Shown: positions 2,663-47,806, counted from the stretch's first letter. The stretch is DNA of 64,000 nt from a virus (IMGVR_UViG_3300042691_012617:104427-168426), one strand, 5' to 3'. Notes: generated by a model from the letters alone, not told the origin. A program made the numbers and translations.

Positions 2663-3448
2663 TCAAGCGGTTGTACCAAAGGACACATAGAAGGTAGTGG
2701 CAGCAGTCAGTCCACCCGCACCATTATCGGTGACAAGAAGAGTTACTGTGCGAGGTCCGCTGTTTGCAGTTGCACCAACCTTGTTGATCTTGAACACGGC
2801 GATGTTGTTGTTGATGTCCGAAGTGGGGCCAAAGAAGGTTTCATAGATCGCGGAGGGAACACCAGTTAGGAGAGTGCTTCCTGAGATGATGTTACCCGCT
2901 GCGCCGAACTGATCGGTTACTTCAGAGAAAGAAAGATTCTGCGTGAAGTTAGCGTCATTTGCAACAACCTTGATGTAAGCGGTCTGACCACCACCAAACT
3001 GCAAGGTAGAGACTCCGTAACCATTTACGGCATAACTTCCATAATTGGCACCACTTCCAGTAGCAGAGTTGGCGAAAGAGAGACCAAGCCCATCAACACC
3101 ACCCGCAGTTGCGCTGTCGCCGCTGAACGGACATGTAAAGTACGGACGAGTGTTTGCCGCTTCTCCCGATGCAGCCGCGCCACCCGTAGCCGAAATGCGA
3201 CCCGCATAGGATGAACTCGTAACGCCCGTGATCGATGGATCGATTGGCATTGCAACGAGAAGTTCCATAAACGGAGTACTGAATGTCAGGGAGGTCGCAC
3301 CTCGGACACCCATCAACTGACCGCCAAGCGAAGTGCCGTCAAGTGGAAGTTCCCAACCCGCAACTGTGCGGATGCAGCGAATCTTTTGCGATGCGTTGAG
3401 CCATGTAGGCTTAGATTCCTCGCGGTCGTTTGCGTTCCAGTAAGACAT
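2663..3448 (-). CDS. putative virion structural/decoration protein
   Basis: G/S/T/A-rich, beta-prone 261 aa; late promoter ATAAATA at 3474-3480 and AGGAG RBS. Confidence 0.55.
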   Translation of the reverse strand: MSYWNANDREESKPTWLNASQKIRCIRTVAGWELPLDGTSLGGQLMGVRGATSLTFSTPFMELLVAMPIDPSITGVTSSSYAGRISATGGAAASGEAANTRPYFTCPFSGDSATAGGVDGLGLSFANSATGSGANYGSYAVNGYGVSTLQFGGGQTAYIKVVANDANFTQNLSFSEVTDQFGAAGNIISGSTLLTGVPSAIYETFFGPTSDINNNIAVFKINKVGATANSGPRTVTLLVTDNGAGGLTAATTFYVSFGTTA

Positions 3449-3476
3449 TTTTGTGGTTCTCCTCTGTGCTTTCTAT

Positions 3477-3914
3477 TTATCCGCCGATTTTCGGTGGGTT
3501 CTTGCCCTTGCCTGCTAGACCGTCATTGGTACCGAGACTCGACTTGGAAGTCGGCTTGGCAGTCTTGCTAGCAACAGAGGCGGGGGTTTCTAGTTCATTT
3601 GCCTTATGCGAAGGGTTCGAAACCTTTCCTGCGGGAACGACTGCTGTCTTTCCCTCAAGGTGCAGTTGAACTGCCTTGGCAAAGTCATTGGCTTCCTTGG
3701 TGGTACCACGGCAACCACAATCCTTCACAGCCTCATTGAAGAGATTGACAAGGGTGTTGCGACGATCCTCAAGGACGGTCTTTTCTGCAACGATCTTGGC
3801 GGCTTCAGCAGCCTTCTCTCCCAAGCAAGGGAGGATGTCTACATCGTTGCGATGTTCGTTTAGGAACTTGGTGATGTCAGCGACCACCTTAGAGTTGAAT
3901 GGATTGTGGAACAT
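3477..3914 (-). CDS. hypothetical late protein
   Basis: 145-aa ORF with AGGAG RBS and perfect TATAAATA upstream. Confidence 0.7.
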   Translation of the reverse strand: MFHNPFNSKVVADITKFLNEHRNDVDILPCLGEKAAEAAKIVAEKTVLEDRRNTLVNLFNEAVKDCGCRGTTKEANDFAKAVQLHLEGKTAVVPAGKVSNPSHKANELETPASVASKTAKPTSKSSLGTNDGLAGKGKNPPKIGG

Positions 3915-3936
3915 GGTGTCTCCTGTTGATACTGGT

Positions 3937-3944
3937 TATTTATA
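3937..3944 (-). promoter_or_regulatory. T4 late promoter (gp55-type)
   Basis: Exact TATAAATA on minus strand. Confidence 0.8.
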
Positions 3945-3952
3945 GATGCGCG

Positions 3953-4213
3953 TTATCCGCCCTTTGCTTTCTTCCAAAGATCGGCATCAGCAGTCTTGCG
4001 GGTCTTGCCACCCACAATGAAAGAGTTCACACGGGCGAATGCCCATTGATGGCTTGTAGCACCAGGACGGTGTCCCCCCTTCCATGCAGCCATGCCCCTG
4101 TCATACACTTTCTTGAGGATGCCGTATGAAATGCCGCTAGCCTTTGCTTTTTTTTCCAAAGCGGCGATGCGAGCCTCTGTAATGTCTTGTTTCAGGGACT
4201 TGTAGTTTTTCAT
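3953..4213 (-). CDS. small basic DUF5824-like protein with capsid-targeting-like leader
   Basis: MKNYKSLKQDITEA..ILKKVYDRGMAAW..HRPGAT..QWAFARVNSF; ATGA overlap with upstream gene. Confidence 0.7.
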   Translation of the reverse strand: MKNYKSLKQDITEARIAALEKKAKASGISYGILKKVYDRGMAAWKGGHRPGATSHQWAFARVNSFIVGGKTRKTADADLWKKAKGG

Positions 4214-7200
4214 GACTTCTTCTCGGGGTTGTAGCCCCATACCTTGAGTGCGAGCAACTTGCGTGTTGGGCGACCCTTCTCGTCACGCATGCCGCCCTTG
4301 GCACCCTTCATGCGGTTGATGAAGTTAACTTGCTTACCCGCCCATTTCCAATCGTTTGGTGTCCACTTTTCCTTGGGGGTGTCAAGCATGCGGATGATGG
4401 CACGGGCAGAGTCACGACCACTTGTGATCTTCTTGCCTCCTGCTCCTGCCTTTCCTGCCTCCTTGCGAGACAGACCCGCTTCCTTGCCCTCGTCAGAATC
4501 AAGGAACGACTGAATCTCCTTGCCCGACATGTTTACGAGTTTCTGCCACTCCTTGTAGAGAGCCGACTTTTCCTCTTCCGACTTCTCTTCGCCAAGCCGC
4601 TCACGCTCTCCTGGAGTGTCCTTCTTATATGTCTTGACGATCTCGTCGCTGCCGACCAACAGCGGGCCTCTCTTGCCCATTGCAGTCCATTGCAGGACAG
4701 CATTGATCTTCTTCGATTCGTTCAGCCAGTTCTCTGTGGTATCGGTTTCCTCGCCGTGCATCTTCCACGCAGTAGCATAGAAGACTTCCTTCCAACGCTT
4801 GCCATATCGCTTTTGGAACTCCTTCTTGATCTTCTCTTTCTTGGAGAAGCGACGAGCAGGGCCGCTTGGAGGACTGACTTCGACCAAGAGGTAGTCAAAG
4901 TCTTCGTTGATGTCGGTCTTGGGCAATTCGCTGCCCATCTCGCTATCGCGGATTTCCTTCAGCAAATCAATGTATGAACGAGTCAATTGGGCAGCCTCCT
5001 GCATGTTACGAGTCAAGCAACGCTCCTCGTAGGCAATTGCCATACGAAGTTTGATTGCGTTTCTTTCATCAGATTCATCGATCTTGGACAGACGCTCCAT
5101 TGCATCGTCGTGTTCGTAGCCATTCTTGAGAGCCTTCAACTTACCCTTCTTGGCGAGTTTCTTGTACAGGGTGCTGTACTTCGATGGCTTGGTCTTGATG
5201 TCTTTCTCATCGGGATTGACAAACTCCCATGTCTGTGGATCGTCATCAGACATTGTCTTGCGCTTTTCAAGACGCTTCTTGCGAAGTTCGGCTTCTTTCT
5301 TGCTCAGACCCGCGACATACTTCTTGGGTAGACCCGAACCCTTGTCCTTTGGGCTTTCCTTTGTTTTACCTGTCTTGGTCTTGAACTCCTTGCCCTTCGT
5401 GACATCTGCTTCAATAAGGGGATTGCCTTCCATCTCATCGCCCATACCGAGCATGCTGAGGAAACTCATGGCACCCGACACCAACTTAGTGGCGTAGACA
5501 CCAATATCAATACCACCCGATTCCATGAACTTGTGGAATAGTTTGGCAATGATCTTGCCAATCTTGTTGTCTTGGGCAAACATTGAAAGGGTAACCCCTG
5601 CGCCCGAAGCCTTGTATGCCTGAAGCATGACTTCATCGCGGACACGCATGACTTCTCGCTTGAAATCTGCGGGTGGAATCTTGCCTTTCTTGTTCACCAA
5701 AGTGAAGACCTTTGCGCTGACTGCGGGAGTCTTCATGATCTCCGCAACAGCCTTCGCAGCATCTTTGACTGCGGTCTTTTCAACAAGTTCTTCCTCTTCT
5801 TCCTCGTCGCCCTTGCGCTTGGAGTTGATATCGGGCTGTGGGTAGATCGCTTCTGCGGGATCGACAACCATGCCTGTCTTACTGAGGAACTGCAATCCAA
5901 TCAGCACCTTTGTGGACATGTGACTGCGGTCGCCAAGGCTGAACTTGATGTTGGGATATTTCTTGCCATGGAACTCAATGTCCATGAGAACCACAAGACG
6001 CTTCTTCTCACCGATACCGCTCTTGACGGTGATGCGACTGACGATCTTTTTAGTGACCTTCTTGCCATTGGGCAACTTGAAGGTGACTGTGTGATCGCCG
6101 TTGTCCTTGATGTCCTCGGCATGGATCATGTTGTAGCCGCTGTTGCCCGTGTCGATCTTGGCGGTGTACTCCGCACCATCGATCTTCACTTCTTCACGCA
6201 CGGCTAGGTTGGAGAACAACTTCCAATGTGCCTTGTTGAGGATGTAATCGACCAAGTCCTCTACAAGTTCCTCCCCCTTGACATTGTTCTTGCCCTTGCC
6301 ATCCTCGTAGTAGCGGTAGTAAATGTTTCCGCTACCTGGGCTTGCATTCATCTCAATGATGTATGGCTTGCCCTGATTGATGACATGGTCGATACCGACA
6401 TAGTAGCACTTGCTTACCCTTGCAGCCCGCTCCACCAACTTTATTTCCTCGTCAGAAAGTTGGAAAGACCCGCCCTTTGAACCACGGGCGATATTCGTGC
6501 GGAAGTCCTTGGGTGCCTTGTCTCTCTTGGCACACGCAAAGATCTTTCCGTTCAGCACGATGCTGCGGACATCGTTCTTGAAGTCAGGTAGGAACTCCTG
6601 AATGATGACTTCTGCCTTGTACTTCCATAGCGTCTGAAGCACCGACTTCAGGCTCTCCATGCTTTCGATCTTGGAGACACCGATGCCTTCCGCGCCCGTG
6701 AGAGTCTTCACAATGATCGGGAACTTGCCACCGACTTCCTTGACCGCAGTTTCAATGTTCTCCTCGTTGGCAACGAATGCCGTGCGGGGGTGGGGCAACT
6801 CATGCTTCTTCAGGGCGATTGCCGTCTCCAACTTGTTGGCGCACAGTTCCATGCCACCACGCTCGTTGACCATGAACACGCCATTGTTCTGTAGGATGGT
6901 CATGATTGCGACTCCGATGTCGCTATTCATCACGCCACCGCGAACAATAGCAACCGTGTCGCTTGGATTGATGGTGCAGTCCTTGCCTTCACCGTCATAG
7001 TTCTTGATGACGATCTTCTTCGATGCAACGCTAGAAATGTCAACCTGAGCCTTGCTCGTCTTCACGGCATAGAACTCAATCTTTCGTCGCTTGCAGATCG
7101 CTTCCATCTTCTCAATGGTGTCGCTCAGATCCTTCTCCGACGATGTGAGGGCTAGGATGGTTACCTTGTCCTCTCCATCCTTGGCTTCGAAGATGTACTC

Positions 7201-7815
7201 TTCCTTGAGGTTCAATCCTTTTCGGACATCGTTGTACATCTTCTTCTTGAGAGCCATGTCGGTTCCCGCGACACCTGTGGCAAACTTCTTGAAGTCGCCA
7301 TCAAATGCTGCTGCTCTCATCTTGGAGGCAGACATGCCCTGAACGCCCTGTGCATCATCGTCACGGGCTTCCCCTGCCTGTACGACTTCGAAGTTGTCGA
7401 ATGAGTACTTGCGCTTCTTTGGATCGCGCTCGGCGGTTCTGCCCTTGTACTTTGCGATGTTCTTGAAATTCTCGACCTGATCGCTGCCTGCAATCATCAC
7501 GATGTTCTTGTAGCCCAAGTCACAGACATGCAGAACCGCAGAGTATGGATCTCCCGCCTTGTTCAGAGGGAACTTCGCCTTGGGGAAGAACTTCTTCAAG
7601 TACTCCACCTTCTGCTTATGTGTCAGGGGATTCTTTTTGGGATCCTGTGAGGTAGAGGCAAAGATGAAGTGATCGGCATTCCGCTTGGATGCCTCGGAGA
7701 GAACTTTGTCAACAAGCACACCGTGACCGATTGTCGGTGGGTTCATGCGACCGAATGCAATGACTACCGTGTCTTTCTTCGGTGCTTCCGTGAGGTGCTG
7801 TGCAAAGTTCTTCAC
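4210..7815 (-). CDS. multidomain polyprotein: cytidylyltransferase-like + RimK ATP-grasp ligase + RimK-associated retropepsin-like protease + DUF5824-like + DUF3140-like
   Basis: FGRMNPPTIGH/SASKMR (HIGH-superfamily NTase); FPIIVKTLTGAEGIGV, QEFL, DFRTNIARG, IIEMNASPG (RimK); AKIDTGN..VLIG (aspartyl-protease-like); WQKLVNMS..SGRDSARAI..LKVWGYNP (DUF3140-like). Confidence 0.85.
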   Translation of the reverse strand: MKNFAQHLTEAPKKDTVVIAFGRMNPPTIGHGVLVDKVLSEASKRNADHFIFASTSQDPKKNPLTHKQKVEYLKKFFPKAKFPLNKAGDPYSAVLHVCDLGYKNIVMIAGSDQVENFKNIAKYKGRTAERDPKKRKYSFDNFEVVQAGEARDDDAQGVQGMSASKMRAAAFDGDFKKFATGVAGTDMALKKKMYNDVRKGLNLKEEYIFEAKDGEDKVTILALTSSEKDLSDTIEKMEAICKRRKIEFYAVKTSKAQVDISSVASKKIVIKNYDGEGKDCTINPSDTVAIVRGGVMNSDIGVAIMTILQNNGVFMVNERGGMELCANKLETAIALKKHELPHPRTAFVANEENIETAVKEVGGKFPIIVKTLTGAEGIGVSKIESMESLKSVLQTLWKYKAEVIIQEFLPDFKNDVRSIVLNGKIFACAKRDKAPKDFRTNIARGSKGGSFQLSDEEIKLVERAARVSKCYYVGIDHVINQGKPYIIEMNASPGSGNIYYRYYEDGKGKNNVKGEELVEDLVDYILNKAHWKLFSNLAVREEVKIDGAEYTAKIDTGNSGYNMIHAEDIKDNGDHTVTFKLPNGKKVTKKIVSRITVKSGIGEKKRLVVLMDIEFHGKKYPNIKFSLGDRSHMSTKVLIGLQFLSKTGMVVDPAEAIYPQPDINSKRKGDEEEEEELVEKTAVKDAAKAVAEIMKTPAVSAKVFTLVNKKGKIPPADFKREVMRVRDEVMLQAYKASGAGVTLSMFAQDNKIGKIIAKLFHKFMESGGIDIGVYATKLVSGAMSFLSMLGMGDEMEGNPLIEADVTKGKEFKTKTGKTKESPKDKGSGLPKKYVAGLSKKEAELRKKRLEKRKTMSDDDPQTWEFVNPDEKDIKTKPSKYSTLYKKLAKKGKLKALKNGYEHDDAMERLSKIDESDERNAIKLRMAIAYEERCLTRNMQEAAQLTRSYIDLLKEIRDSEMGSELPKTDINEDFDYLLVEVSPPSGPARRFSKKEKIKKEFQKRYGKRWKEVFYATAWKMHGEETDTTENWLNESKKINAVLQWTAMGKRGPLLVGSDEIVKTYKKDTPGERERLGEEKSEEEKSALYKEWQKLVNMSGKEIQSFLDSDEGKEAGLSRKEAGKAGAGGKKITSGRDSARAIIRMLDTPKEKWTPNDWKWAGKQVNFINRMKGAKGGMRDEKGRPTRKLLALKVWGYNPEKKS

Positions 7816-9014
7816 GACTCGTTTACCTTTCTATTCTGTCTGCTGAACCGCAGACGATTGACCAACTTGACCGCCGTACCCGTTCTGACGATCACGATTC
7901 CTTCGGGGTCGGTGGGACGAATACCATCAGCATCCATGAAGAAGTGACCAAGGGCAGAGACCGCATACAACTTTCCAAGGATCATCTCCTTGACCTTTGC
8001 GATCTTGTTATGCAGTTCAAACATAGCATTGAACTGATCCTCGTAAGCATCGATGAAAGCGAGGATGTCGTTCATGGCGGTTTCCTTCGCCTGTCTCCCC
8101 TTCTCGGTCTTCAACTTATTTAGTTCCTTTTCCAACTTAGTCTTTACATACAGTTTCAGACCACTTGCGCTGAAACTGGTCAGACCGCCGTTGATCGTGC
8201 TGTTGATGTAGGGGAGCATCAGCGGCATGAGGTCTTTACGGGCAAGCAGGGGCTTCAGGAAAGGCTTTACCTTCTTGGCTAGCGTCTCGCACTCGGTGAT
8301 GCCCCGAAGCGCGGTATCGCCTTCCCCGCCCTTCAGGAGGGCAGGGGTGAGGTCGTAGATGTTCGGATCGGTGAACCAAACATCAGGATGCTGCTTGAGT
8401 TTGCTAGCGTTGAAGTTGAAGGTGGTTGCCTTCAAATCGGCAAGGGTCTTGCCTGAATACTCGGTGTGGAATGTAATTCCAATCTTTGCGGCTGCAATCC
8501 GCTTGCCGATTTCGCTGTCAGACGGGACGGTGTATAGAATCGTATTTGGTTGGAATCCAATATGTGGCTTTCCGCCAATCGTCAGACTCTTCTTACCATC
8601 AGCGGTGAACATCAGGTCGCCCTGAAGCACACCCTTGATTCCTACCTTTGGCAAATACTTCAGGCATTGAACCAACTTGTCTGCCAAGTCCTTGATGTCA
8701 AATCCCTTGCGAATCTCTTCTTCGGTATGAAACACCTTCTGCACTTGCTTGCCGAAGACACCCTTGATAGCGACGAAAAACTTCTTGTTCTCGGGATTGA
8801 TGCCGCAGATAACAGCAGGCTTTCCATCCCATTTTGTGGACATTCCTAGCGATGTGTTGCCCGTCTTGAGACTCTGAACGATGTCCTTCATGAAGGCAAT
8901 CGCATTGTCCAAGCCACTCCCACCCTTGAGGAGCATGAGATCTTCGATGTGATCTAGGTGCTTGTTCTGCTCAGTTTGCTCCATGAGAGGGAGCATTTGC
9001 TTAAATGACAGCAT
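7812..9014 (-). CDS. DUF6267-like protein with RNA-ligase-like nucleotidyltransferase motifs
   Basis: NKHLDHIEDL, KWDGKPA (KxDG), LQGDLMF, PEGIV, KLVNR; neighbour of cytidylyltransferase as in other T4-like phages. Confidence 0.7.
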   Translation of the reverse strand: MLSFKQMLPLMEQTEQNKHLDHIEDLMLLKGGSGLDNAIAFMKDIVQSLKTGNTSLGMSTKWDGKPAVICGINPENKKFFVAIKGVFGKQVQKVFHTEEEIRKGFDIKDLADKLVQCLKYLPKVGIKGVLQGDLMFTADGKKSLTIGGKPHIGFQPNTILYTVPSDSEIGKRIAAAKIGITFHTEYSGKTLADLKATTFNFNASKLKQHPDVWFTDPNIYDLTPALLKGGEGDTALRGITECETLAKKVKPFLKPLLARKDLMPLMLPYINSTINGGLTSFSASGLKLYVKTKLEKELNKLKTEKGRQAKETAMNDILAFIDAYEDQFNAMFELHNKIAKVKEMILGKLYAVSALGHFFMDADGIRPTDPEGIVIVRTGTAVKLVNRLRFSRQNRKVNES

Positions 9015-9033
9015 AGGGTGTCTCCTGTGCGGT

Positions 9034-9040
9034 TATTTAG
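9034..9040 (-). promoter_or_regulatory. late promoter CTAAATA
   Basis: CTAAATA followed by AGGAG RBS and ATG 9014. Confidence 0.7.
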
Positions 9041-9052
9041 GCTCATATGAAA

Positions 9053-9127
9053 TAGGCGGGGCGGGAGTCGAACCCGCATGAGGGCGATTATAAGTCACCA
9101 CCTTTTACCACTATCAGGCACCCGCCC
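9053..9127 (-). tRNA. tRNA-Ile(UAU)
   Basis: GGGCGGG..GGTGA-CT-TAT-AA-TCGCC..GGTTCGACTCC..CCCGCCTA cloverleaf. Confidence 0.85.
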
Positions 9128-9132
9128 GTAGT

Positions 9133-10566
9133 TTAAGACCAACCCTTTATGGTTGGCTTCTCGCGCCCGTACCCGCCCGTGCGCCTGTGTGCGCCCCCGC
9201 CCCCGTGCGCGTGAGGGGCATCGTCTTCGTCTTGGTCATCGGCACCGTTGCCTTGAATCAACTGCTGTTGCGATTCGTCCACATCAAACAACTTCATCTT
9301 GGCACGGTCGATCCCGATCACGAACTTGCGATTCGTGGCGACATCGTTGTAGCGGTTCTTCAACTGCTTGACCATGACCTGTCCCAACTCGTCCAACTGT
9401 TCCGTGGCGATGAGGGCGAACATGAAGTCTGCGGTGGCGGGTAGACCAAAAGATTCCGATGTGTCAGTCAGTTCCACATCGGTATTGCCGAAGCCCGAAC
9501 GATTGGTCTGTGTTGCGGTGAAGATCGGCACCCCAACCTCCACAGCCAAGCCGCGAAGTTCCTCTGCAATTGCCTTGACATAGGTGTACGAATTGACATT
9601 TCCGTTCGCCTTGAAGCGAGACGATGCACAAATGTTCAGGTAATCGATGAAGATAACATCGGGCTTGAAGTTCTTCTTCAGGCGCAGTTCATCCAACAAG
9701 TGACGGAAGTGATTGGCATTCGCAGATGCCGTGGGGTACTCCTTGATCAGAAGTTTGCCTGTGATGCCCATGGTCACCTTGGCAAGCCGCTTGGCATAGA
9801 TCTCCATTGGCAACTTCTTGAGATCGTCTAATGTGATATCCATAAGGTTAGCATCGATTCGCTCTGCAATCCGCTCCTCTGCCATCTCACAGGTGATGTA
9901 CAGGACATTCTTGCTCTGTGACAAGCAGTTAGCGGCATGGTGGCACATGAACAGGGACTTGCCCACGCCTGTACCCGCGAGGATGACATTCAGAGTCTTG
10001 TCGGGCACACCGCCGTTGGTGATCTTATTGAAGTAGTCTAGGTCGAATGGTGTCTTCTTTTCTACGCGGTGGTAGAAGTCGTACCGCTTCTCGGCATCCT
10101 CAATGAAATCGTGACCGATGTGTTCATCGAACGACACGCTGAGTGCCTTGGTCAGGATCTCGGGGATGGCGTTCTTCGACCGACCCTTCGCCTTCTTCTC
10201 GTCAAGGAGTTCGATGGACTCCATCAGGGCGTTGTAGACCGCCTTGTCCTTGCAGAACTTCTCGGTCTGATCAACAAGCCACTCCTCATCAGGCTCCTCG
10301 GTGCCTTTGTCCATCGTCTCTACCAACTTGACACACTCATCAAACTCACCCTGAGATAGACCGTCCTGTTGATTCAGGATGATCTTCAGGGCTTCGCGGG
10401 TGGGAGCGGTGGAGTACTTTTCGATGAACTCAGACACCGTGTTGAACAGCCGCTTCTCACAGGAGTCGTGAAAGTACTCCTGCTTGAGAAATGGTTGGAC
10501 GCGGCGTGTGAACTCGGGTCTGTGAAGAAGACTGCGTAGGATGATGAGTTCAATCTTGTCGCTCAT
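9133..10566 (-). CDS. gp41: replicative DNA helicase (T4 gp41, DnaB-like)
   Basis: AGTGVGKS Walker A, IFIDYLNIC, AEELRGLA, TATQTNR, TSESFGLPATAD, KQLKNRY. Confidence 0.96.
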   Translation of the reverse strand: MSDKIELIILRSLLHRPEFTRRVQPFLKQEYFHDSCEKRLFNTVSEFIEKYSTAPTREALKIILNQQDGLSQGEFDECVKLVETMDKGTEEPDEEWLVDQTEKFCKDKAVYNALMESIELLDEKKAKGRSKNAIPEILTKALSVSFDEHIGHDFIEDAEKRYDFYHRVEKKTPFDLDYFNKITNGGVPDKTLNVILAGTGVGKSLFMCHHAANCLSQSKNVLYITCEMAEERIAERIDANLMDITLDDLKKLPMEIYAKRLAKVTMGITGKLLIKEYPTASANANHFRHLLDELRLKKNFKPDVIFIDYLNICASSRFKANGNVNSYTYVKAIAEELRGLAVEVGVPIFTATQTNRSGFGNTDVELTDTSESFGLPATADFMFALIATEQLDELGQVMVKQLKNRYNDVATNRKFVIGIDRAKMKLFDVDESQQQLIQGNGADDQDEDDAPHAHGGGGAHRRTGGYGREKPTIKGWS

Positions 10567-16063: not shown

Positions 16064-16891
16064 TCAAATGCCTAGAATTTTGTCAACCGCTTGCATCGTA
16101 TTTATGGATGGTCTGTATCCATAGGATCGAAGTTTGTCGTTGTTGAGACAAACATCTTTCACCTGTACAACCCGATGAAAATGCGGAGTTTCAATCGACA
16201 CCAACTCCGATGATGAGTTCAGTTTGTCCTTGCTATATCGTATGATGTCGCCAATCTTGCTTGGCTCAGAGTTGCTTATGTTTATGATCTCGCCCACGGG
16301 GGCGCGAGTCACGGATGTGTTGATAGCCCTACATGCATCTTCAACATCCATGAAATCTCTGATGTTGGAACCCCCGTCATAGAGTTTAACTGGCTCGTCT
16401 GCTCTCAAGAGGTTGATCATGTTTTGCAGAGCGTTCTTCTTGGGGGAAACACCCCTATCACCGCTGCCAATGATGTTGGTTAAGCGAAGTATTCGGTACT
16501 TCATCCCCATCGTTTCACAGTAGCAAATCAGCATCTGCTCTGCCGCTCTTTTTGTGATGGAATAGAATCCTCTAGGATCGCAGGGATCAGATTCCTTTGT
16601 GTCTAGAGTGCAGTTCATCCCATATACAAACCAAGAACTCACAAAATTGAAAGTGGCAGTTGGATACTTCTTTCGTGAAGATTCCAACACATCAATCAAC
16701 TTGCTGAGATTGGTGTCGATGTCCTTGTGCGGTTCTGTAAAGATGTGATAGTTGTGAGTCGTACTGATGAAGTACAAAATGCTGTCGGACAGCGGCTCGT
16801 CTTGATCCCGAGGAACCAACACAGTATCACCGCCATACATCTTCGCGTATGTTCCACCAACAAATCCTGTGCCACCATATACAGAGATCAT
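16064..16891 (-). CDS. NAD-dependent epimerase/reductase
   Basis: GGTGFVG, SSWFVYG, YSITK, RDFMDV. Confidence 0.85.
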   Translation of the reverse strand: MISVYGGTGFVGGTYAKMYGGDTVLVPRDQDEPLSDSILYFISTTHNYHIFTEPHKDIDTNLSKLIDVLESSRKKYPTATFNFVSSWFVYGMNCTLDTKESDPCDPRGFYSITKRAAEQMLICYCETMGMKYRILRLTNIIGSGDRGVSPKKNALQNMINLLRADEPVKLYDGGSNIRDFMDVEDACRAINTSVTRAPVGEIINISNSEPSKIGDIIRYSKDKLNSSSELVSIETPHFHRVVQVKDVCLNNDKLRSYGYRPSINTMQAVDKILGI

Positions 16892-16895
16892 GATG

Positions 16896-17780
16896 TTAGG
16901 CCCCAATCTTCATCTGTTCAATCCACCAAGAAGACTTCAACATATTCATATTCCATGTTGTCTTACTGAACTCTTCGTATGTCTTGTTTAGAAGGTCTTC
17001 AGTCACATCTTGGTACGAATTTACGAACAGAATCGGTAGATTTCTCTCTAGCGAGGAGTGAACATGATTCCTCTGAACAATAGGAATCACACCACAATAA
17101 AGAGACTCCCACATTCGATGTGTATCAACTCCATTACCACGCGGGCAAAGCATGAACTTGTGATCAAGAAGTTCTTCTTTGTATGACCCCAATTGACCAC
17201 CCTCTACGGGCTGACGAACAGTAGCCCACGGCTTGTCCGAGAACATTGGATACAGAGGCTCACGAACATCAGGTCGAGTCCATGTACGATGGTTCACATA
17301 AAGAAGACGGTTGCCTTTTGTTTTGGCAGCATCAAGCCCCCTCTTAGCGGTTAGACCCAACACACAGAAGTCATCCGCGATTCCTAGGGGGACACCGTGT
17401 GCCCTACTGCACTCATTATTACATCCCCACCATGTGACTGAAAGTTTTGACTGCATCGCGTCAAAGATAGAGTCGGTGATTGCGTAATCACTTTGTCCCG
17501 TCAGTAGAATGAAAGGAGTGCTACATCTGTTGTTGTTCAGGTACGCAACTAGATGTCGCAAGTAGTCGAACTTACAGTAGACTACGGATTTTGGAGTTAG
17601 GGCAGCAAAGTTAAACAGATTGATATAATCGCCGTGATGATTGCTTCTACGGGCAACTTGCTGTGCTGTTGGGGGAATTCGATATGCGCCATCCAATGCA
17701 GATATGGCAAACCAAAAATCACATTTGGATATTAGGTTTTGAGAACTTAGTACCTCTGTTGGCTCAATTTGCAGATTCAT
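16896..17780 (-). CDS. exostosin-like (GT47-like) glycosyltransferase
   Basis: FMLCPRGNGVDTHRMWESLYCGVIPIV. Confidence 0.7.
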   Translation of the reverse strand: MNLQIEPTEVLSSQNLISKCDFWFAISALDGAYRIPPTAQQVARRSNHHGDYINLFNFAALTPKSVVYCKFDYLRHLVAYLNNNRCSTPFILLTGQSDYAITDSIFDAMQSKLSVTWWGCNNECSRAHGVPLGIADDFCVLGLTAKRGLDAAKTKGNRLLYVNHRTWTRPDVREPLYPMFSDKPWATVRQPVEGGQLGSYKEELLDHKFMLCPRGNGVDTHRMWESLYCGVIPIVQRNHVHSSLERNLPILFVNSYQDVTEDLLNKTYEEFSKTTWNMNMLKSSWWIEQMKIGA

Positions 17781-36663: not shown

Positions 36664-37006
36664 TGGAGTCGGGGGGAATCGAACCCCCGTGTTGACATGC
36701 TTTCCGTGGTGCCTACTACGCCAATAGCCTTCACTTGTTCAGATCCGCCGCTGAAGGCGACTTAGCGGATCAGAGTGGGACTCTTTGTTCTCGGCTTCCT
36801 TCGGCGTTCCCGTTCCCGAAAGCCCAACCGCTGATTTGCTCCTTACACCCTAGCGGTGTCGTAGTGCTTGGAGGTCACGCTGCGAGAGCGTAACGGCGAG
36901 TCTGCTTGTTGGCAGTTTTGGTTTCCATACGCTTTTAAGAGCCTAGCATGGTTCCTCTTGGCGCATCACTCATCAGTCTTCATGCAATCGATGCCTGATC
37001 GACCCC
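36664..37006 (-). ncRNA. ssrA: tmRNA; tag ORF 36875-36913 = ANKQTRRYALAA*
   Basis: 5' GGGGTCGA..TCGA, 3' GGGTTCGATTCCCCCCGACTCCA with G3:U70, resume context AAAACT-GCC, tag ending YALAA. Confidence 0.92.
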
Positions 37007-38725: not shown

Positions 38726-39253
38726 TCAGTAACCCAACTTCTTTAGCGCAGCAATTGTCTCTGCCGCACTCTTGTGCTTGATCCCGATGCCACCACGGGC
38801 TTCCCATTCCTTGATGTTCTTTCCCCAATCATCGATGAGGATGTTGGGAACTCCCTTGGTGACAGCGTAGTCCTTCTTCTGATCCCGCAGGAGAACATGG
38901 CTCTTGGCGGGAAGGGGGCGAAGGTTCTTTTCGATCCACTTCATCTTGTCCTGCTTGGATTTTGACTGCCACGATGTCGTGTGAGCGGACAGGATGTTGG
39001 GATCGTGCTTGGAGATGTATGCCCACAACTGCTTGCCGTCCTTCATCCAAGGAAGTTCCGCAAACAGGTGCGGGTGTTCCTTGTCGATGCGAGGCTTGAG
39101 TGGATTGACATACGAGTCAAAGTTCTTGTTGTTCAGGTCTTTGATACCATAAAGGTTGGCGATGCCGCCGATGATGTCCACCAAGACACCGTCCATGTCG
39201 CAGTAGATCTCGCCCTTGACGGCTTCGTTGATGTGGTGGAGGAATGACTTCAT
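38726..39253 (-). CDS. HAD-family 5'(3')-nucleotidase-like phosphatase with capsid-targeting-like leader
   Basis: MKSFLHHINEA; IYCDMDGVLVD, ILIDD..NI.EW..GGIGI.H; CTAAATA at 39261-39267. Confidence 0.85.
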   Translation of the reverse strand: MKSFLHHINEAVKGEIYCDMDGVLVDIIGGIANLYGIKDLNNKNFDSYVNPLKPRIDKEHPHLFAELPWMKDGKQLWAYISKHDPNILSAHTTSWQSKSKQDKMKWIEKNLRPLPAKSHVLLRDQKKDYAVTKGVPNILIDDWGKNIKEWEARGGIGIKHKSAAETIAALKKLGY

Positions 39254-39273
39254 GACCTGATATTTAGTCGAAA

Positions 39274-39346
39274 TGCTCTCGGTGGGGTTCGAACCCACGA
39301 CTCTCAGATTAAAAGTCTGATACTCTACCAACTGAGTTACGAGAGC
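39274..39346 (-). tRNA. tRNA-Lys(UUU)
   Basis: TCAGA-CT-TTT-AA-TCTGA cloverleaf. Confidence 0.93.
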
Positions 39347-39349
39347 GTA

Positions 39350-39423
39350 CATCCCCGACAGGATTCGAACCTGTAACCAACGGATTAGAAATCCGTTGCG
39401 CTATCCTATTGCGCCACGGGGAC
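39350..39423 (-). tRNA. tRNA-Arg(UCU)
   Basis: ACGGA-TT-TCT-AA-TCCGT cloverleaf. Confidence 0.93.
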
Positions 39424-40341: not shown

Positions 40342-41403
40342 TCAACCCCGAACGCCCAAAGCCTTCAAAGTTGTTGGGTGAACTTGCGTCCCGCCGCCCG
40401 ATGCAATCGCAGAAAGGGCAGCGGTCTGCGCCTTTTCAGGAGTAATGTCGGGAGTGGGAGCATACTTCTTAATGTAGTCCATAATAGCAACCAAAGACTC
40501 GCGGTTGATCTCGCGGCTTCCTGCCTTCTTGACACGGAAGTACTTGAAGTCCATGATTGCAACGCCTTTGAGATCGTGATTCAAGGCAATCGTCTTACCA
40601 CGGTTTGTGCCCGACTGATAAGTGTACTCACCGCCCTTCTTGATTTCAATGGTGTTCGCCTTGCCGCCGAGAATGACAGCGATATCGCCATTGATACCGA
40701 GAGAAGGATAGGTGCGGAACATGATGTCCTGCATGGTTCCTGCTGCACCACGATGTGTCTTAAAGAGAATGTCGGTGGGCACAACGCGACCACGGGTGAG
40801 GTTCTGCTGAAGGGCGATCTGATAGTCCGTGAGAATCCATACGATATGGATGTTCTCAGGCTGATAGCCACCCTGCTTGAGGAACTGGAGGACACCCTGC
40901 TCCCCGCCCATTTCTCCGACAAGCGCACCCATGTCCTTTAGAGTCATGTCGAACATGACATTCGGAAGTTGTGACCGAGTCTTATCCGCAAAGAATGTCA
41001 TAAGTTGCTTCTGATCCAAACCAAGACCCTTGACCGCCATGTGCAATTTGCCTGTGTCGTTCGGATCCTTGAGATCAAGTGTACGAAGCAGAGGGATGAC
41101 ATCCTTGATCGACTGTGCCTTTGGAAGATCCATCTTGGCGGATGCAATCGCATCGCGCATCTTGAGGAGCGCGTCCTTGATGTCATCGGGATTGAAGATC
41201 TTGAACTTATCTCCCTGCATGAGATTCATTGCAGCGAACGACTTGCCCGATCCTGCTCCACCCGCAAGGATGACTGCATTGCCATAGTTGCCGCCCTTGC
41301 CAAGGATCAGCAACTTCTCCTCTAGGTACTTCTGAATCTCTTCGTAGAGGGGGGCGTTCTCTTCCTGAATGTGTTCGTCGCGCAGTTGGAAAAAGGTCTT
41401 CAT
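40342..41403 (-). CDS. zeta-toxin-like P-loop kinase with capsid-targeting-like leader
   Basis: MKTFFQL..LEE; ILAGGAGSGKSF, NPDD, FDMT, ALQQNLTRGRVVP; ATAAATA at 41413-41419. Confidence 0.72.
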   Translation of the reverse strand: MKTFFQLRDEHIQEENAPLYEEIQKYLEEKLLILGKGGNYGNAVILAGGAGSGKSFAAMNLMQGDKFKIFNPDDIKDALLKMRDAIASAKMDLPKAQSIKDVIPLLRTLDLKDPNDTGKLHMAVKGLGLDQKQLMTFFADKTRSQLPNVMFDMTLKDMGALVGEMGGEQGVLQFLKQGGYQPENIHIVWILTDYQIALQQNLTRGRVVPTDILFKTHRGAAGTMQDIMFRTYPSLGINGDIAVILGGKANTIEIKKGGEYTYQSGTNRGKTIALNHDLKGVAIMDFKYFRVKKAGSREINRESLVAIMDYIKKYAPTPDITPEKAQTAALSAIASGGGTQVHPTTLKALGVRG

Positions 41404-41415
41404 GGCATTTCCTAT

Positions 41416-41598
41416 TTATGGTCTCGTACTAATGGTTGTCTTCTGTGCCGAGTGGGGTGCCATCACCGTATTGTTCGGGATCGCATTGCTCTTGGGCTTC
41501 CCGCCCTTCTTCAAGGACTTCTGTTGCATGATGTAATCGTCCATTCCCTTGCGGAACTGAAACCAATCCTTGCCGCGTTGAATGATGTCTTCTTTCAT
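41416..41598 (-). CDS. small hypothetical protein
   Basis: 60-aa ORF, ATGA-coupled. Confidence 0.5.
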   Translation of the reverse strand: MKEDIIQRGKDWFQFRKGMDDYIMQQKSLKKGGKPKSNAIPNNTVMAPHSAQKTTISTRP

Positions 41599-42524
41599 AC
41601 GGGCAACTTTGGATCAGGACTCATGAAATTGTTCTTCTTCATGGCGGTCATCATCACCATCTTCTTCATCTTGCCATCCCAATCAAGAGTGAACGGCATG
41701 TTGAGACTCTTACTCACATCAAGAATGATCGCCTTCCAATCGACGGGGTGATCCTTGATCTTCTGTGCATGCTTCTCATATGTCTTGCGGAAGGCATCCT
41801 GAATCTCAGGAATCGTGACCGTGCCACCATAGCCACGACTGCCGTTGATGCGTTCCCAAAAGTGTCGGGTGAAGGCGATGTCCAACTTTGCCGATGCGAA
41901 CATGGCATCAAGGACAGACTCAAGTCGCTTCAGGTCATTCCATGCCACGGGCGTGTGCGCCTGCGGCTGCACATACGAGTGCCCCCGCGCATACCCGTGA
42001 CCCGTGGTCGGGCGACCCGTGACGATGCCTTCGCTGACATCCTCTGTGAAGAACGACATGAGTTTGGGGGAGACGCGAACCTTGCGCTTCCCGATCTTGC
42101 GGGTGCTGCTGATGAAGGTGGTCTCTTCCAATTTCTCGTCCAAGTCCCACGGACCATAGTGTCCCGTGCTTCTCAACTTGCGAGTCATCTCAATGTAGGT
42201 GTATGTCTTGTATGCACCCTTCTCGTTCGGTTTGATCTTTCCGATTGCGTAGTAGACACGCTTGTCAATTCGGATGTCATTGCCATTCGATTGATCGATC
42301 ACCATGTCACCGTCCTCCACCCATGCGTGGGGAAATCGTAGCCCTGCCACAGATCCCTGCCCATACACCAAGGCATGGACGAGGACGGGCTTGCCTGAGG
42401 TGGACTTGATCGGTTTGCCGAAGAAGGCTGAGTTGAAGCGCATCATGAGATTTACTGCGGCTGTCATACAGTCGCCATCTCCATCGTGTCGCTCCGTTAG
42501 ATATTGATTGAAAGACTTGGTCAT
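41595..42524 (-). CDS. two-domain hypothetical protein with capsid-targeting-like leader
   Basis: MTKSFNQYLTE; GDC..HAWVE..ID (Cys-His-Asp, transglutaminase-like) then FTRHFWERIN domain. Confidence 0.7.
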   Translation of the reverse strand: MTKSFNQYLTERHDGDGDCMTAAVNLMMRFNSAFFGKPIKSTSGKPVLVHALVYGQGSVAGLRFPHAWVEDGDMVIDQSNGNDIRIDKRVYYAIGKIKPNEKGAYKTYTYIEMTRKLRSTGHYGPWDLDEKLEETTFISSTRKIGKRKVRVSPKLMSFFTEDVSEGIVTGRPTTGHGYARGHSYVQPQAHTPVAWNDLKRLESVLDAMFASAKLDIAFTRHFWERINGSRGYGGTVTIPEIQDAFRKTYEKHAQKIKDHPVDWKAIILDVSKSLNMPFTLDWDGKMKKMVMMTAMKKNNFMSPDPKLPV

Positions 42525-42823
42525 CTATTCCTCGACTGCCAATCAGGAGTGATTGGAATACTCTTATCGCTCACGGCTCTCTTGCTCTGCGCTCCTGCCG
42601 CCTTGAGCCATTGCAGGACATGTGTTCTTCGCGTGGTCGCTTCGACTGCATTGGTGACTTCCCAAGGCCCCATTTGATCCTTGTCATCTGCCCAAGTTTC
42701 AACATCGAAATCTGTGGGAACTTGGTCAACTGCAAAGTTTGCACCGTCATAGCCTACTGCCCTTGTGTAGACCATGTTGGCGGTGCTATTGCTCTCATGG
42801 ATGTACTGCTTGAAGGACTTCAT
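42521..42823 (-). CDS. hypothetical protein with capsid-targeting-like leader
   Basis: MKSFKQYIHES; CTAAATA at 42830-42836. Confidence 0.7.
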   Translation of the reverse strand: MKSFKQYIHESNSTANMVYTRAVGYDGANFAVDQVPTDFDVETWADDKDQMGPWEVTNAVEATTRRTHVLQWLKAAGAQSKRAVSDKSIPITPDWQSRNR

Positions 42824-44060: not shown

Positions 44061-47000
44061 TTAGGTCAGAACTCTGTCCTTGATCAATGCTTCGATGGTG
44101 GTCGCATCGACATTTCTGACAGCCGTTCTGTACCCGATGGCTTGGTGAACGAGATCCACTTTGCCCTTCGCGTTGGTGGCTACCTTATAGTTCTCACCCT
44201 TCACCACGCTGCCGCTCATCATACTCTTGCTCTGAAGCGCACGGAGTCTTTGACCGACATAGACCATCTTCGATCCTTGTACCGCGACACGATCCTGCTC
44301 TTCGATCACTTCACCATCGATCTCTGTGATCTCAGATACGGTTCCCTTATCTACTAGTTTCTTCCAAATCTCCCATGCCTTCCCCTGCTGCGTTTTGGCT
44401 CTTGTGTACATGCTCTTCAAGTTTTTATAGGATGGAACTGCTCCTTCAAACGGAGGAACCGCTCCTGTTGCCTTGTACCAAGTCCTCAGATCATTCTCAC
44501 TTGGAACACCCTTCGCCTCTGTGACATCGATTTCTACACTCTCTGCCTTCACATACTTGACATGGTTGCGGATCGCCCACTTCTCCATCACGGGCTTGCC
44601 GTCCGCACCTTCATCAACGGCGATGTAGCAGACGGTTCCCTTGACATTGGCTGATCTCCATTGCTCCTTGCGGTCCCCACCATAGGAGACGCAGACTTCG
44701 TGCGGGAGACCATGGCTCTTGCCCCATGAGTCGGTTGAGTTGCGGTACTCAAACCGCTTCTTATAAGTTGCCTCCGTGAAGGCACCGACGATTCCCTTCG
44801 TGTCCAAGGGAGCGTATGCTTCTGTGAATGATTCGAACACAGCCTTGATCTTAGAGTTGTTGCGATCCTCAGGCTTGAGGAATTCACGAACTCCCTTAAG
44901 AACATGTGCAACCATGTTCTTCGGTTCTCCACGCAGGAAGTCGGTTAGCCCGTCGATCATTTCCCACACAGGGCCTGAGTCACCGTTCGGAACTTTCATA
45001 GTTCCATTGAGACCACCCTTCTTATATGCCTTCTCTAGGTCATCGATCAAACCATCGGCATCCGTCTTGGTCAGGGAGTCTGTTCCCTTCCACCACACCT
45101 CGCTGATGTCGAATGATTCGACCATCGACATGCCGTGCTTGTCCATCCACATGGCGACAGCCTTGAGCAACTGACGAGGAGCGAAACGCATTTCCTTGTC
45201 ACCGACGAAGCGTGTCGTGCTGTCGGGGAAGGCAGTCAGAACCAACTTTGGATTACCCTGCTGCTTCGTGTTGAAGAAGACCTTATGTGGTGCAATCGAT
45301 GTGCGGGTGTTCTTCTTGGCGGGTTCTTCGATGAAGCCTACCTCGCCCTTGTTTTGAACGCTGATGAGCCAACCCTTGAGACTGCCCTCCACGAACGAAG
45401 TGAAGCGATACTTGCCGATGACCTGTTGGGCTTCGGTCAGTTCCTCGCCGTCCTCTTCGACGCTCTCGCCCCAACTCTTGTTGACGAAGGCAGCGGCTTC
45501 TCTCTCGCTATTCATATCCTTGACCCACTTGCCGCTCATCGTATAGATTCCGATGATTCTCTTGGAGTCACGCTTGCCAGGACCCGTGAGATATTTTACC
45601 TTTGCCTCTTCGATATCTACTTCTTCCTTCTGCACCTTCTGCTTGGGAACGAGTACGCTTGCAGGCTCACCGACATCGACCACATAGCCACCGCCATGCT
45701 GCCGTGCCTTGTCCGTGCCGCCGTCATCGTAACGGACGATCTTGCCGCTGACCATCTTGCCCTTATGCGGAACCTTGACCTTGTCGCCCGCCTTGAACTG
45801 TTCAGCGACTTCGACTTCTTCCTTGATGGCGACCACGGTGACCTCGCCGCCCGACCAACTTCCCTTGGAGCCGACCTTGGCTTCAGGCTTCTTGGTGAGT
45901 CCCTTGGTGAGAGAAGCGAAGTCGCTAGGAGCATACACCTTGATCGACATGCTCTCGGGACTCTTCTCCTTGGTGACAACCAACACGCTGCCCGTGGGCT
46001 TGCCCTCAAGAGACTTCTTGGCAGCACGAAGAGAACTGACCATGGAGGATCCGCCGATAGGATCGTCCTTGACCATCTTCTCGGCACCCGCCATCATGCG
46101 GACACCTTCTTCAACATTTTCAACTTCTTCCTTCACTCCTGCGTTTCTCTTCGCAGCGGCGATGGCTTCGTCCCTAGTGGCATATCTGCCGATCACCGTT
46201 CCCTTGCGACCATCGGGGAAGCGGACACTACCTTGGCTGTAACTTAGTTGGTACAACACGAACTTGCCGCTATCTCGGTCGAGGCGAAACCCATAGGTGC
46301 CGATGTTCAAGTTCTCCTCGTTGACCTCGACCTCTTCCTTAGTTCCAAGATATTTGACTTCGTTCTTGTGCTTGGCGATGTCATATCTCGGATTGCTACC
46401 GACATTCACCATCAGAGCGTCTGAGCCAACCTTGACCACGACTCCACGACGAGGCTTGCCGTTGACCATGGTCTGCACGGCATCACCAACACGGAACTGA
46501 TGTGTATCGGTTGCCTCTGCAACCTCGACGCTCTCACCGTGGAATGTGTTGAACATCATCTCTAGTGCAGCGATGTCCGACTCCCGTGACTTGTCGCCCA
46601 TGGCAGGAGCGACCTTGTTCTTGTCTAGGAGTTGCTTGAGTTCCTTGCGAACGGGATCGGTCTTGGACAATCCCTTCATCTCTGCTGCCTTGAGTTTGGC
46701 ACCGTACTTGCGACTGATCTCCGCAACCACAGCCTTGGGCAGACCTTCGACCCAATCCTCCATGGCTGCTTTGACTGCGCCCTCTGTGATGTACTCTTCG
46801 TGAAGCGATTCAAGCATGAGGAACAGATGCGACTCTTTGTCCAAGCCCTCTGTCTTGAGCATGCTGAAGTCAACGGTGACGATGGCATTGGTTCCCGCAG
46901 GAGCCTTGACCTTGTCGAACGATGTGTTGATCGACGCGGGTGAACCCGTGGCTTGACGCTTGGTCAGACCGTTGAAGGTGATGATGAAGTCCCGTGCCTT

Positions 47001-47264
47001 CGCAGCGTTAGCGAAGTACAGCATCATCTTCTTGTCGCTGACTTCCATCTTGTTGATGCCCTTTTCGAAACCCATCTTTTGGATGAGTTGACGCATCTTG
47101 GCTTCGAACTGCTGCTTGCTGTAGCCGAACATCGCGCCGCCCCCGCCTGTGGCGAACAGGGGTGCTTCGTTGATCGCCTTCGCCATCTGCTCGTTCTTAG
47201 AGGTGGCGGCACCGCCGAACTTGGCGGCTTCTGCGAGGATTCGTCTTTGGAATTCGTTCATCAT
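44061..47264 (-). CDS. large modular polyprotein with repeated acidic E-x-V-E-x-x-E linkers
   Basis: 1067 aa from ATG 47264 (AGGAG RBS, CTAAATA at 47290-47296); KOW/SH3-like modules FRVGDAV, FKAGDKV. Confidence 0.8.
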   Translation of the reverse strand: MMNEFQRRILAEAAKFGGAATSKNEQMAKAINEAPLFATGGGGAMFGYSKQQFEAKMRQLIQKMGFEKGINKMEVSDKKMMLYFANAAKARDFIITFNGLTKRQATGSPASINTSFDKVKAPAGTNAIVTVDFSMLKTEGLDKESHLFLMLESLHEEYITEGAVKAAMEDWVEGLPKAVVAEISRKYGAKLKAAEMKGLSKTDPVRKELKQLLDKNKVAPAMGDKSRESDIAALEMMFNTFHGESVEVAEATDTHQFRVGDAVQTMVNGKPRRGVVVKVGSDALMVNVGSNPRYDIAKHKNEVKYLGTKEEVEVNEENLNIGTYGFRLDRDSGKFVLYQLSYSQGSVRFPDGRKGTVIGRYATRDEAIAAAKRNAGVKEEVENVEEGVRMMAGAEKMVKDDPIGGSSMVSSLRAAKKSLEGKPTGSVLVVTKEKSPESMSIKVYAPSDFASLTKGLTKKPEAKVGSKGSWSGGEVTVVAIKEEVEVAEQFKAGDKVKVPHKGKMVSGKIVRYDDGGTDKARQHGGGYVVDVGEPASVLVPKQKVQKEEVDIEEAKVKYLTGPGKRDSKRIIGIYTMSGKWVKDMNSEREAAAFVNKSWGESVEEDGEELTEAQQVIGKYRFTSFVEGSLKGWLISVQNKGEVGFIEEPAKKNTRTSIAPHKVFFNTKQQGNPKLVLTAFPDSTTRFVGDKEMRFAPRQLLKAVAMWMDKHGMSMVESFDISEVWWKGTDSLTKTDADGLIDDLEKAYKKGGLNGTMKVPNGDSGPVWEMIDGLTDFLRGEPKNMVAHVLKGVREFLKPEDRNNSKIKAVFESFTEAYAPLDTKGIVGAFTEATYKKRFEYRNSTDSWGKSHGLPHEVCVSYGGDRKEQWRSANVKGTVCYIAVDEGADGKPVMEKWAIRNHVKYVKAESVEIDVTEAKGVPSENDLRTWYKATGAVPPFEGAVPSYKNLKSMYTRAKTQQGKAWEIWKKLVDKGTVSEITEIDGEVIEEQDRVAVQGSKMVYVGQRLRALQSKSMMSGSVVKGENYKVATNAKGKVDLVHQAIGYRTAVRNVDATTIEALIKDRVLT

Positions 47265-47309
47265 AGGGTTAATGCTCCTGAGTAAGGAGTATTTAGCCTT
47301 TGACAAACG

Positions 47310-47476: not shown

Positions 47477-47806
47477 TTACTTGGCTCTACCGCCAAGGAA
47501 CTTCGTGTGGATAGGATCGCCCTTCAGATGAATGCCGACGATCTCATATCCGTTTGTTTTGAGTCCCGCAACATACGCATTTAAGTGTCGATTAAATTCG
47601 TACTTGTTGTCGGTCGTCTTCAGTTGCACGGGTGGGAACACCGCATTGACCGTGGTCTTCTCGCCCGTCTTTGGAAGAACGATTCGATAACGAACGACAG
47701 CCCTGATGTCATACTCATCATCAGGTTCGTATGCGTTCGATTTGTACTTGAAAACCTTGAACGAGTCGAATGTCGATTCGCTGATGTAGTCCTTGTATGA
47801 CTTCAT
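47477..47806 (-). CDS. hypothetical protein with capsid-targeting-like leader
   Basis: MKSYKDYISES. Confidence 0.7.
   Translation of the reverse strand: MKSYKDYISESTFDSFKVFKYKSNAYEPDDEYDIRAVVRYRIVLPKTGEKTTVNAVFPPVQLKTTDNKYEFNRHLNAYVAGLKTNGYEIVGIHLKGDPIHTKFLGGRAK

Follow-up and report, generated by a model that had tools for sequence, protein, structure and literature searches.

A candidate capsid-targeted cargo polyprotein with RimK- and RimB-like domains in an uncultured T4-like phage

What a phage would do with a nucleotidyltransferase, a RimK-type glutamate ligase and a RimB-like aspartic protease joined in one polypeptide is the question raised by P0001, a gene in a stretch of 64,000 nucleotides (the window; IMGVR_UViG_3300042691_012617:104427-168426) of an uncultured T4-like phage. 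The source is a 168,426-bp IMG/VR record with a CheckV completeness of 93%, whose DNA polymerase is of the T4 type with ~50% identity to that of cyanophage S-RIM8. P0001 is a single open reading frame (ORF) of 1201 codons with a GTG start at window positions 4210-7815 on the minus strand, and translation of the ORF together with profile searches located all domains and linkers where an earlier note on this DNA had placed them (Table 1). From the sequence evidence given below we consider it on balance probable that P0001 encodes a late-expressed, capsid-targeted cargo polyprotein that is processed by a gp21-type protease.

The product starts with a leader of ten residues. In the T4 capsid-targeting sequence MKTYQEFIAE/A (a slash marks the cut) residues 4 and 7 matter for targeting and residues 8 and 10 for processing, and the leader of P0001 matches it with an aromatic residue at position 4, a hydrophobic residue at position 8 and Glu at position 10. 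The leader was disordered in the AlphaFold2 (AF2) model, and an [LIVM]xE leader was found in 50 of the 57 complete IMG/VR homologues. Leader-like N-termini are enriched in the genome: they occur in 28 of 189 ORFs, about 4 being expected (P ~1e-15, or 3e-5 if three candidate starts per gene are allowed). Within the window, ~16-20 otherwise unrelated ORFs (range 2160-61865) start with M-K/x-x-F/Y ... [ILV]-x-E leaders, for example those at 38726-39352, 40342-41403, 41595-42524, 42521-42823, 44061-47306, 47477-47806, 52099-53712 and 55726-59792, which points to an unusually large set of candidate head cargo.

The operon to which P0001 belongs is headed by a DUF6267 gene, which is preceded by the motif CTAAATA. 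This motif is present in 40 copies in the genome, and 27 of these precede a start codon of the same strand by 10-70 nt; the genes preceded by it include the gp23 homologue, many structural genes, the DUF6267 operon head and several genes whose products have leader-like N-termini. CTAAATA is the late-promoter consensus derived for the T4-like phage Aeh1 (PMC1524935) and, as judged from its positions, appears to behave as a late promoter here. The GTG start of P0001 overlaps the TGA stop of the DUF6267 gene (GTGA) and its stop overlaps the ATG of a downstream 86-codon DUF5824 gene (ATGA), indicating translational coupling of the three genes. A gp21-family prohead protease at genome positions 16320-16964 (PF03420, E 1e-33), a gp23 capsid homologue (PF07068, E 2e-150) and a gp22-like scaffold are also encoded in the genome. 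In the gp23 homologue, YLRE/SAP immediately precedes the conserved mature core, consistent with a protease that cuts after [L/I]xE.

Such sites are found in the linkers of P0001. Across 21 homologues, residues 661-1201 retain six [LI]xE positions, every one of which falls into linkers with an AF2 confidence (pLDDT) below 50; these linkers make up 177 of the 541 residues. The nine control tripeptide motifs gave 0-2 conserved linker sites. The junction between nucleotidyltransferase and RimK carries an [LI]xE-type site in 57 of 57 complete IMG/VR genes. The predicted cleavage products are basic (pI 9.4-9.9), with the exception of RimK-RimB (pI 8.1). ITE-6 and LTE-619 are the cut sites of Alt, an enzyme that T4 injects (PMC5694885). 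Furthermore, the cyanophage cytidyltransferase T4-GC190 was detected with 25 counts in purified S-SM1 virions (PMC3037559 Table S8), and an annotated cytidylyltransferase, ORF154, was found in S-CREM2 virions (PMC10665884). The leader, CTAAATA, the six linker sites and the cyanophage orthologue detected in virions together argue for a head-packaged cargo.

According to this model, the leader would direct the precursor into the prohead's scaffolding core, just as IPI-III and Alt are directed by the T4 capsid-targeting sequence, and the gp21-type protease would cut after the conserved [LI]xE sites of the disordered linkers, giving a nucleotidyltransferase of ~22 kDa, a RimK-RimB protein of ~52 kDa and small basic fragments. 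These would remain with the DNA and be ejected into the next host, where the RimK-RimB pair may write and trim alpha-linked glutamate tails and the nucleotidyltransferase may act on some phosphorylated substrate. In this subclade, the embedded protease may itself cut a run of six Glu (Glu6) that adjoins it.

Several observations weigh against a packaged and processed cargo. Seven of the 57 complete IMG/VR homologues lack [LIVM]xE in the leader, and [LI]xE is also present inside folded domains of P0001 (E407, E462, E488, E519), so that the motif alone does not define a cut. T4-GC190 was not detected in the two other proteomes of PMC3037559 Table S8, and the authors of the S-CREM2 study warned of possible carry-over (PMC10665884). 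The RimK-RimB protein of phage YerA41 is labelled "structural protein" and listed as particle-associated, which is weak evidence since the same particle list includes many replication enzymes. In pelagiphage Mosig, the gene for a related RimK-RimB protein is located among replication genes. The RimK domain failed the S6-ligase equivalog NF007764 (72.1 bits, cutoff 331) and the protease domain failed the RimB equivalog NF052261 (28 bits, cutoff 200); with the former cutoff missed, the RimK substrate is not assignable from sequence. The tail of the host ribosomal protein bS6 is the likeliest candidate, a guess that we regard as doubtful. Packaging and cutting are inferred from sequence logic and orthologue proteomics, and for the packaged polyprotein that the earlier note had envisaged the evidence is indirect, consisting of the leader, the late promoter, the gp21 homologue, the linker sites and the virion proteomics of the cyanophage orthologue.

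Some of these points would be expected if the product were a late multi-enzyme that stays in the cytoplasm, unpackaged, as one chain or as an oligomer, with the leader and the [LI]xE linkers being shared junctions that recombination among neighbouring genes had left behind. Modules come and go precisely at the linkers, which could therefore mark sites of recombination, replication genes surround the Mosig gene, detection of orthologues in virions is inconsistent, and [LI]xE is short and also occurs in folded domains. However, the leader matches the T4 capsid-targeting sequence at positions that matter and such leaders are enriched at N-termini, the operon shares its late-promoter motif with structural genes, the six conserved sites all lie in disordered linkers, unlike the control motifs, and the phage encodes a gp21-type protease. 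We therefore regard a cytoplasmic multi-enzyme as unlikely.

Whether the cargo could be functional was judged from the individual domains: none of the three enzymes has a disrupted catalytic motif in the sequence, and all look active. Residues 8-208 matched the phage "cytidyltransferase" family phrog_3041 in a profile search (E 1e-52), with a Pfam score (PF01467 clan) of 18.3, below the cutoff of 21. Conserved motifs of this domain are TIGH (28-31), of the HIGH type, and MSASKMR (161-167). The AF2 model of the nucleotidyltransferase (pLDDT 88) gave a Foldseek probability of 1.00 for NadD, NadM and PPAT; since the fold matches to NadD, NadM, PPAT and FAD synthetase score about alike, "cytidyltransferase" is a mere family label. 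Sequence searches of the PDB with the domain, alone or as a profile, gave weak matches only (PPAT, E 0.18; MJ0951, E 0.0015).

The RimK domain (residues ~215-530) matched PF08443 with an E-value of 5e-30 and 105 bits (cutoff 21) and passed the RimK-family model TIGR00768 with 146.5 bits (cutoff 143.4; residues 236-494). Its closest solved structures are the RimK enzymes of Pseudomonas (7qyr, E 1.5e-26) and E. coli. Degenerate ATP-grasp residues, which the earlier note had named as a ground for rejecting its reading, were not found: K370, Q406-E407, D415-R417, R439/N441, D476, E488 and N490 show full or at least 90% conservation across 24 homologues, and they align with the counterpart motifs of 7qyr. 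Residues 540-656 matched PF05618 (RimB-like) with 37.5 bits (cutoff 27), and D555-T556-G557 is invariant in the 24 homologues; a weak match (E 0.099) was obtained to 9g58, a PF05618-type "putative ATP-dependent zinc protease domain" protein. That RimK pairs with RimB-type proteases is indeed known (PMC11957791), as the earlier note had it.

The fusion is real. More than 120 protein clusters with 42-89% identity to the polyprotein were found in a search of 5.8 billion proteins, and 171 IMG/VR loci encode relatives. Nucleotidyltransferase, RimK, protease and C-terminal domain were all present in 24 of 24 sampled homologues (46-90% identity), and only the middle varies. The gene order DUF6267-polyprotein-DUF5824 recurs in contigs of different samples, including that of a relative with 57% identity; an assembly artefact, about which the earlier note had cautioned, is therefore excluded by architecture and gene order shared across independent assemblies. 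In cultured phages, none of 510 matching records covers 80% of the polyprotein, a megablast search with the window's first 20 kb found nothing, and tblastn with residues 660-1201 gave just two weak matches, to small proteins of Methylophilales podophages.

How the chain was assembled can be read from simpler relatives. Gp184 of cyanophage Syn9, with 382 amino acids (aa) and the leader MKKFSAFLSE/A, is 41% identical to the nucleotidyltransferase; it aligns to residues 16-204 and then to 919-1070 (including the motifs LVE/VSPP and TPGE), skipping the RimK-RimB block and the first two modules. Its neighbour gp183 is a DUF6267 protein, so that a nucleotidyltransferase beside DUF6267 is, as claimed before, the arrangement of T4-like cyanophages. 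The Mosig RimK-RimB protein (461 aa) has a leader-like start and is colinear with residues 287-653. Both alignments fit the RimK/protease cassette that had been proposed to be inserted here. A search of 1.84 billion representatives revealed the RimK-then-RimB cassette in many contexts: stand-alone proteins of ~450-500 aa, several with leaders such as MKTFKETLIE/K, fusions in which a nucleotidyltransferase precedes it (P0249, P0251), a form extended by an HNH domain (P0248), and a protein of 1325 aa in which DUF6267 is fused with the nucleotidyltransferase-RimK-RimB block (P0244). With several independent nucleotidyltransferase/RimK-RimB architectures, the association is recurrent and not a one-off insertion. 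Either the partners work together, or cargo genes fuse freely as the protease separates them again.

In a further explanation, nucleotidyltransferase, RimK-like ligase and DUF6267 form one small-molecule or nucleic-acid pathway, for example nucleotidylation followed by glutamate addition as by MptN or CofF on cofactors, so that the target would not be a protein. The recurrent fusions, including the added DUF6267 in P0244, are in line with it, cofactor glutamate ligases belong to the RimK family, and among NCBIfam models that of MptN ranks second for the RimK domain. K-x-D-G is conserved in DUF6267 (STKWDG in P0002, SVKYDG in Syn9 gp183), as are EG-V-V and K-x-VNR towards the C-terminus; these are reminiscent of motifs I, IV and V in covalent nucleotidyltransferases (ligases or capping enzymes), and no meaningful sequence match to DUF6267 was found in PDB or NCBIfam. 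Hypermodified thymidine is reported for YerA41, a phage with a RimK-RimB protein. But where a protease re-separates the products, fused neighbouring cargo genes should do no harm, so that fusion is no proof of a common pathway; in structure and sequence the RimK domain is closest to protein-modifying RimK enzymes, the partner protease is of a type specific for poly-Glu peptides, and this analysis linked no modification-pathway genes to the locus. A common pathway is therefore highly improbable.

What is new in this analysis is that the Glu6 run (671-676), which begins ten residues past the end of the protease domain, fits the specificity of RimB and was modelled in the active site of a protease dimer. 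Pseudomonas RimB cuts tails of at least six contiguous Glu and also an internal E8 linker (PMC11957791), and exactly six Glu follow the protease. Runs of at least five Glu occur only twice in the proteome, as Glu6 in the polyprotein and as Glu7 in the gp22-like scaffold (G000:C1:15176-16273, minus strand, outside the window; L003:2905-4002), and chance alone would give ~0.001 runs of at least six. A complex model of two protease domains and a 45-residue linker scored 0.62 (best control, 0.01), a score that may reflect likeness to solved cases since retropepsin-peptide complexes are common among solved structures; the mark set for this score was reached by 58 of 80 solved complexes and by 2 of 110 mismatched pairs. 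The model runs agreed in at least 65% of contacts with a partner pLDDT of at least 44, and both D555, G557 and residues 594-601 contacted E672-E675. Self-cleavage at Glu6 and action on the scaffold are attractive ideas but unlikely. A run of at least six Glu was found in just 38 of 120 homologue clusters, which makes the tract a subclade feature and also counts against the cargo model. Self-release at an encoded poly-Glu would, by analogy, parallel the retroviral protease in Gag-Pol.

The same data bear on a role in the head itself. RimK-RimB could mainly act on phage head proteins, with RimK extending Glu ends made by gp21 and the RimB-like protease serving as a second maturation protease that cuts encoded poly-Glu in the polyprotein and gp22. 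The only two Glu runs lie behind the RimB domain and in the gp22 homologue, they are both present in G000 and G004 and both absent in G002, a relative with Glu7 in the polyprotein has Glu8 in the scaffold, the complex model lays Glu672-675 across both catalytic Asp, and internal poly-Glu is cut by RimB. On the other hand, the three genomes compared represent two independent lineages, T4 scaffold proteins are acidic anyway, and access of ATP and glutamate to an enzyme inside proheads is presupposed; since more than half of the homologue clusters have no poly-Glu run, such a role cannot be ancestral. Taken as the main function of RimK-RimB it is very unlikely. Scarcely better is the case for a cargo-borne second maturation system in the T4-like heads of this clade, in which RimB would free itself at poly-Glu and cut the scaffold poly-Glu, and RimK would tail gp21-made Glu C-termini. 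RimK and RimB together would then be a system to write and erase tags inside the virus particle or on injected contents.

A packaged cargo polyprotein, which remains our preferred reading, has its closest parallel in T4 internal proteins. It shares with IPI-III and Alt [I/L]xE sites and a leader of ~10 residues in which position 4 is aromatic, position 8 hydrophobic and position 10 Glu; its predicted products are basic like theirs, its operon has a late-promoter-like motif, and like Alt it would be an enzyme cargo that is cut at both ends. Unlike in T4, one precursor is predicted from the sequence to yield ~7 products including three enzyme domains, and neither these cargo enzymes nor such a polyprotein are known from T4. 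Cyanophage T4-GC190 (Syn9 gp184) shares the orthologous nucleotidyltransferase, a similar leader, a homologous tail and the upstream DUF6267, and has been detected in some virion proteomes; it is without the RimK-RimB block, the poly-Glu run and the DUF3140-like end. The ejection proteins of phiKZ-like giant phages are also head-internal proteins cut by a gp21-related protease after Glu of a three-residue motif, often at several sites per precursor, but the motif is S/A/G-x-E and not L/I-x-E, the phage lineage is another one and the RimK-RimB cargo is absent.

For the enzyme pair itself, the counterparts are Pseudomonas RimABK and the bacterial RimBK hybrids (PMC11957791), in which a RimK-family ligase is likewise paired with a D-T-G retropepsin-like protease; the poly-Glu here has the length that RimB requires. 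In contrast to these, the order here is RimK then RimB without RimA, the pair is phage-encoded within a larger protein and far below the equivalog models, and the poly-Glu is genetically encoded in the same chain. Polyvalent proteins (Iyer et al. 2017, PMC5512222) likewise combine several unrelated enzymatic domains in one phage polypeptide for which injection is predicted, and have embedded peptidases with proposed self-processing; the C-terminal domain of P0001 is fused elsewhere to ART-PolyVal. With three enzymatic domains, further modules and predicted injection, P0001 has the at least two unrelated effector domains that define this class. Targeting here is apparently by a T4-type leader and gp21 sites and not by MuF or portal fusions, and a term search of PMC5512222 found neither RimK-type amidoligases nor RimB-like proteases.

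If the polyprotein is packaged and cut, a widespread uncultured T4-like clade would deliver, along with its DNA, a nucleotidyltransferase and an enzyme pair that glutamylates ribosomes or proteins, a new class of injected host-takeover activity beside ADP-ribosylation by Alt. The capsid-targeting/gp21 system would then handle multi-enzyme polyproteins, which would explain why neighbouring cargo genes fuse and split freely. Glu6 beside a RimB-type protease would be a simple case of a bacterial-type retropepsin processing a viral polyprotein and a natural substrate for studies of RimB specificity, and the DUF3140/DUF6321-like domain would gain context as a recurrent basic module of head cargo.

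Table 1 Features of the P0001 operon (window coordinates)
Feature	Position	Strand	Remarks
CTAAATA, late-promoter-like motif	9034..9040	-	26 nt upstream of the DUF6267 start codon
DUF6267 gene P0002, 400 aa	7812..9014	-	first gene of the operon; PF19782, E 3e-94
Leader (M)KNFAQHLTE/A, 10 residues	7786..7815	-	resembles the T4 capsid-targeting sequence MKTYQEFIAE/A
HIGH-superfamily nucleotidyltransferase domain, residues 11-210	7186..7785	-	terminates in linker LKE205 / IFE210
RimK-family ATP-grasp alpha-L-glutamate ligase domain, residues 211-535	6211..7185	-	
RimB-like retropepsin-type aspartic protease domain, residues 536-660	5836..6210	-	catalytic D555-T-G at 6145-6153
Linker, Glu6 (E671-E676) then LVE679	5779..5835	-	candidate RimB self-cleavage and gp21 site
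Variable middle, residues 680-1076	4588..5778	-	small basic helical modules bounded by LIE802, INE971, LVE979, LNE1033, LGE1076
DUF3140/DUF6321-like basic C-terminal domain, residues 1077-1201	4213..4587	-	stop codon 4210-4212
DUF5824 gene, 86 aa	3953..4213	-	downstream of the polyprotein; leader MKNYKSLKQDITE/A; E 9e-19

All relatives examined have the DUF6267 gene upstream of the polyprotein gene, and the DUF5824 gene occupies the same place in relatives. A weak match (E 0.07) links residues 830-890 of the polyprotein to the other half of the DUF5824 Pfam model, a hint in the sequence which suggests that stand-alone and fused forms of one DUF5824 module exist. Copies of CTAAATA on the minus strand of the window include those at 9034-9040, 22878-22872, 39267-39261, 42836-42830, 47296-47290 and 59804-59798. 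The canonical T4 late promoter TATAAATA was tried and discarded, as it occurs once in the window, no more than by chance; the CTAAATA variant was informative instead. A scan of 3300-9300 for sigma-70 promoters and terminators revealed no promoter-like sites, and terminator-like sites at the rate of shuffled sequence. A tmRNA with the tag ANKQTRRYALAA is encoded at 36664-37006 (minus strand) and 11 tRNA genes lie within 9053-39424, of which tRNA-Ile(TAT) sits directly upstream of the late-promoter motif of the polyprotein operon.

Among homologues, the modules of the variable middle are gained or lost exactly at linkers. The AF2 model of residues 661-1201 (mean pLDDT 62) consists of helical modules joined by linkers with a pLDDT below 50, and the fragments predicted for the middle have a pI of 9.4-9.8. 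Foldseek of this model against the PDB gave nothing below E 2.5, and VIA-align against 48,161 chains gave generic helical bundles only, the best being a designed protein (Z 9.1). In P0115 and P0120 (~residues 880-1040) a linker contains an insert of ~200 aa with DGHHRWAA; a ParB-like identity of this "DGHHR" insert, noticed by eye, was rejected since no Pfam family was found in P0120:840-1040. A short Cys-containing motif, PCWxG...NC, is inserted at a linker of P0034 (~880-905), and P0014 and P0020 have small beta-rich inserts at linkers.

The DUF3140/DUF6321-like domain is the best-conserved non-enzymatic part of the polyprotein; DUF3140 was matched at residues 1089-1171 with 29.9 bits (cutoff 25), and no mention of it was found in the literature. 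It also exists as a small stand-alone protein with a leader (e.g. MKTYTQLIVE/L) and is fused elsewhere to an NT5C nucleotidase and, in P0241, to ART-PolyVal. Fused or tandem forms of the domain were noted in P0223, P0241, P0237 and P0170, and in P0237 the domain is preceded by an N-terminal region without Pfam match. A protein from a 305-kb contig contains the domain duplicated in tandem, and the stand-alone, tandem and fused forms together mark it as a recurrent basic module of such cargo.

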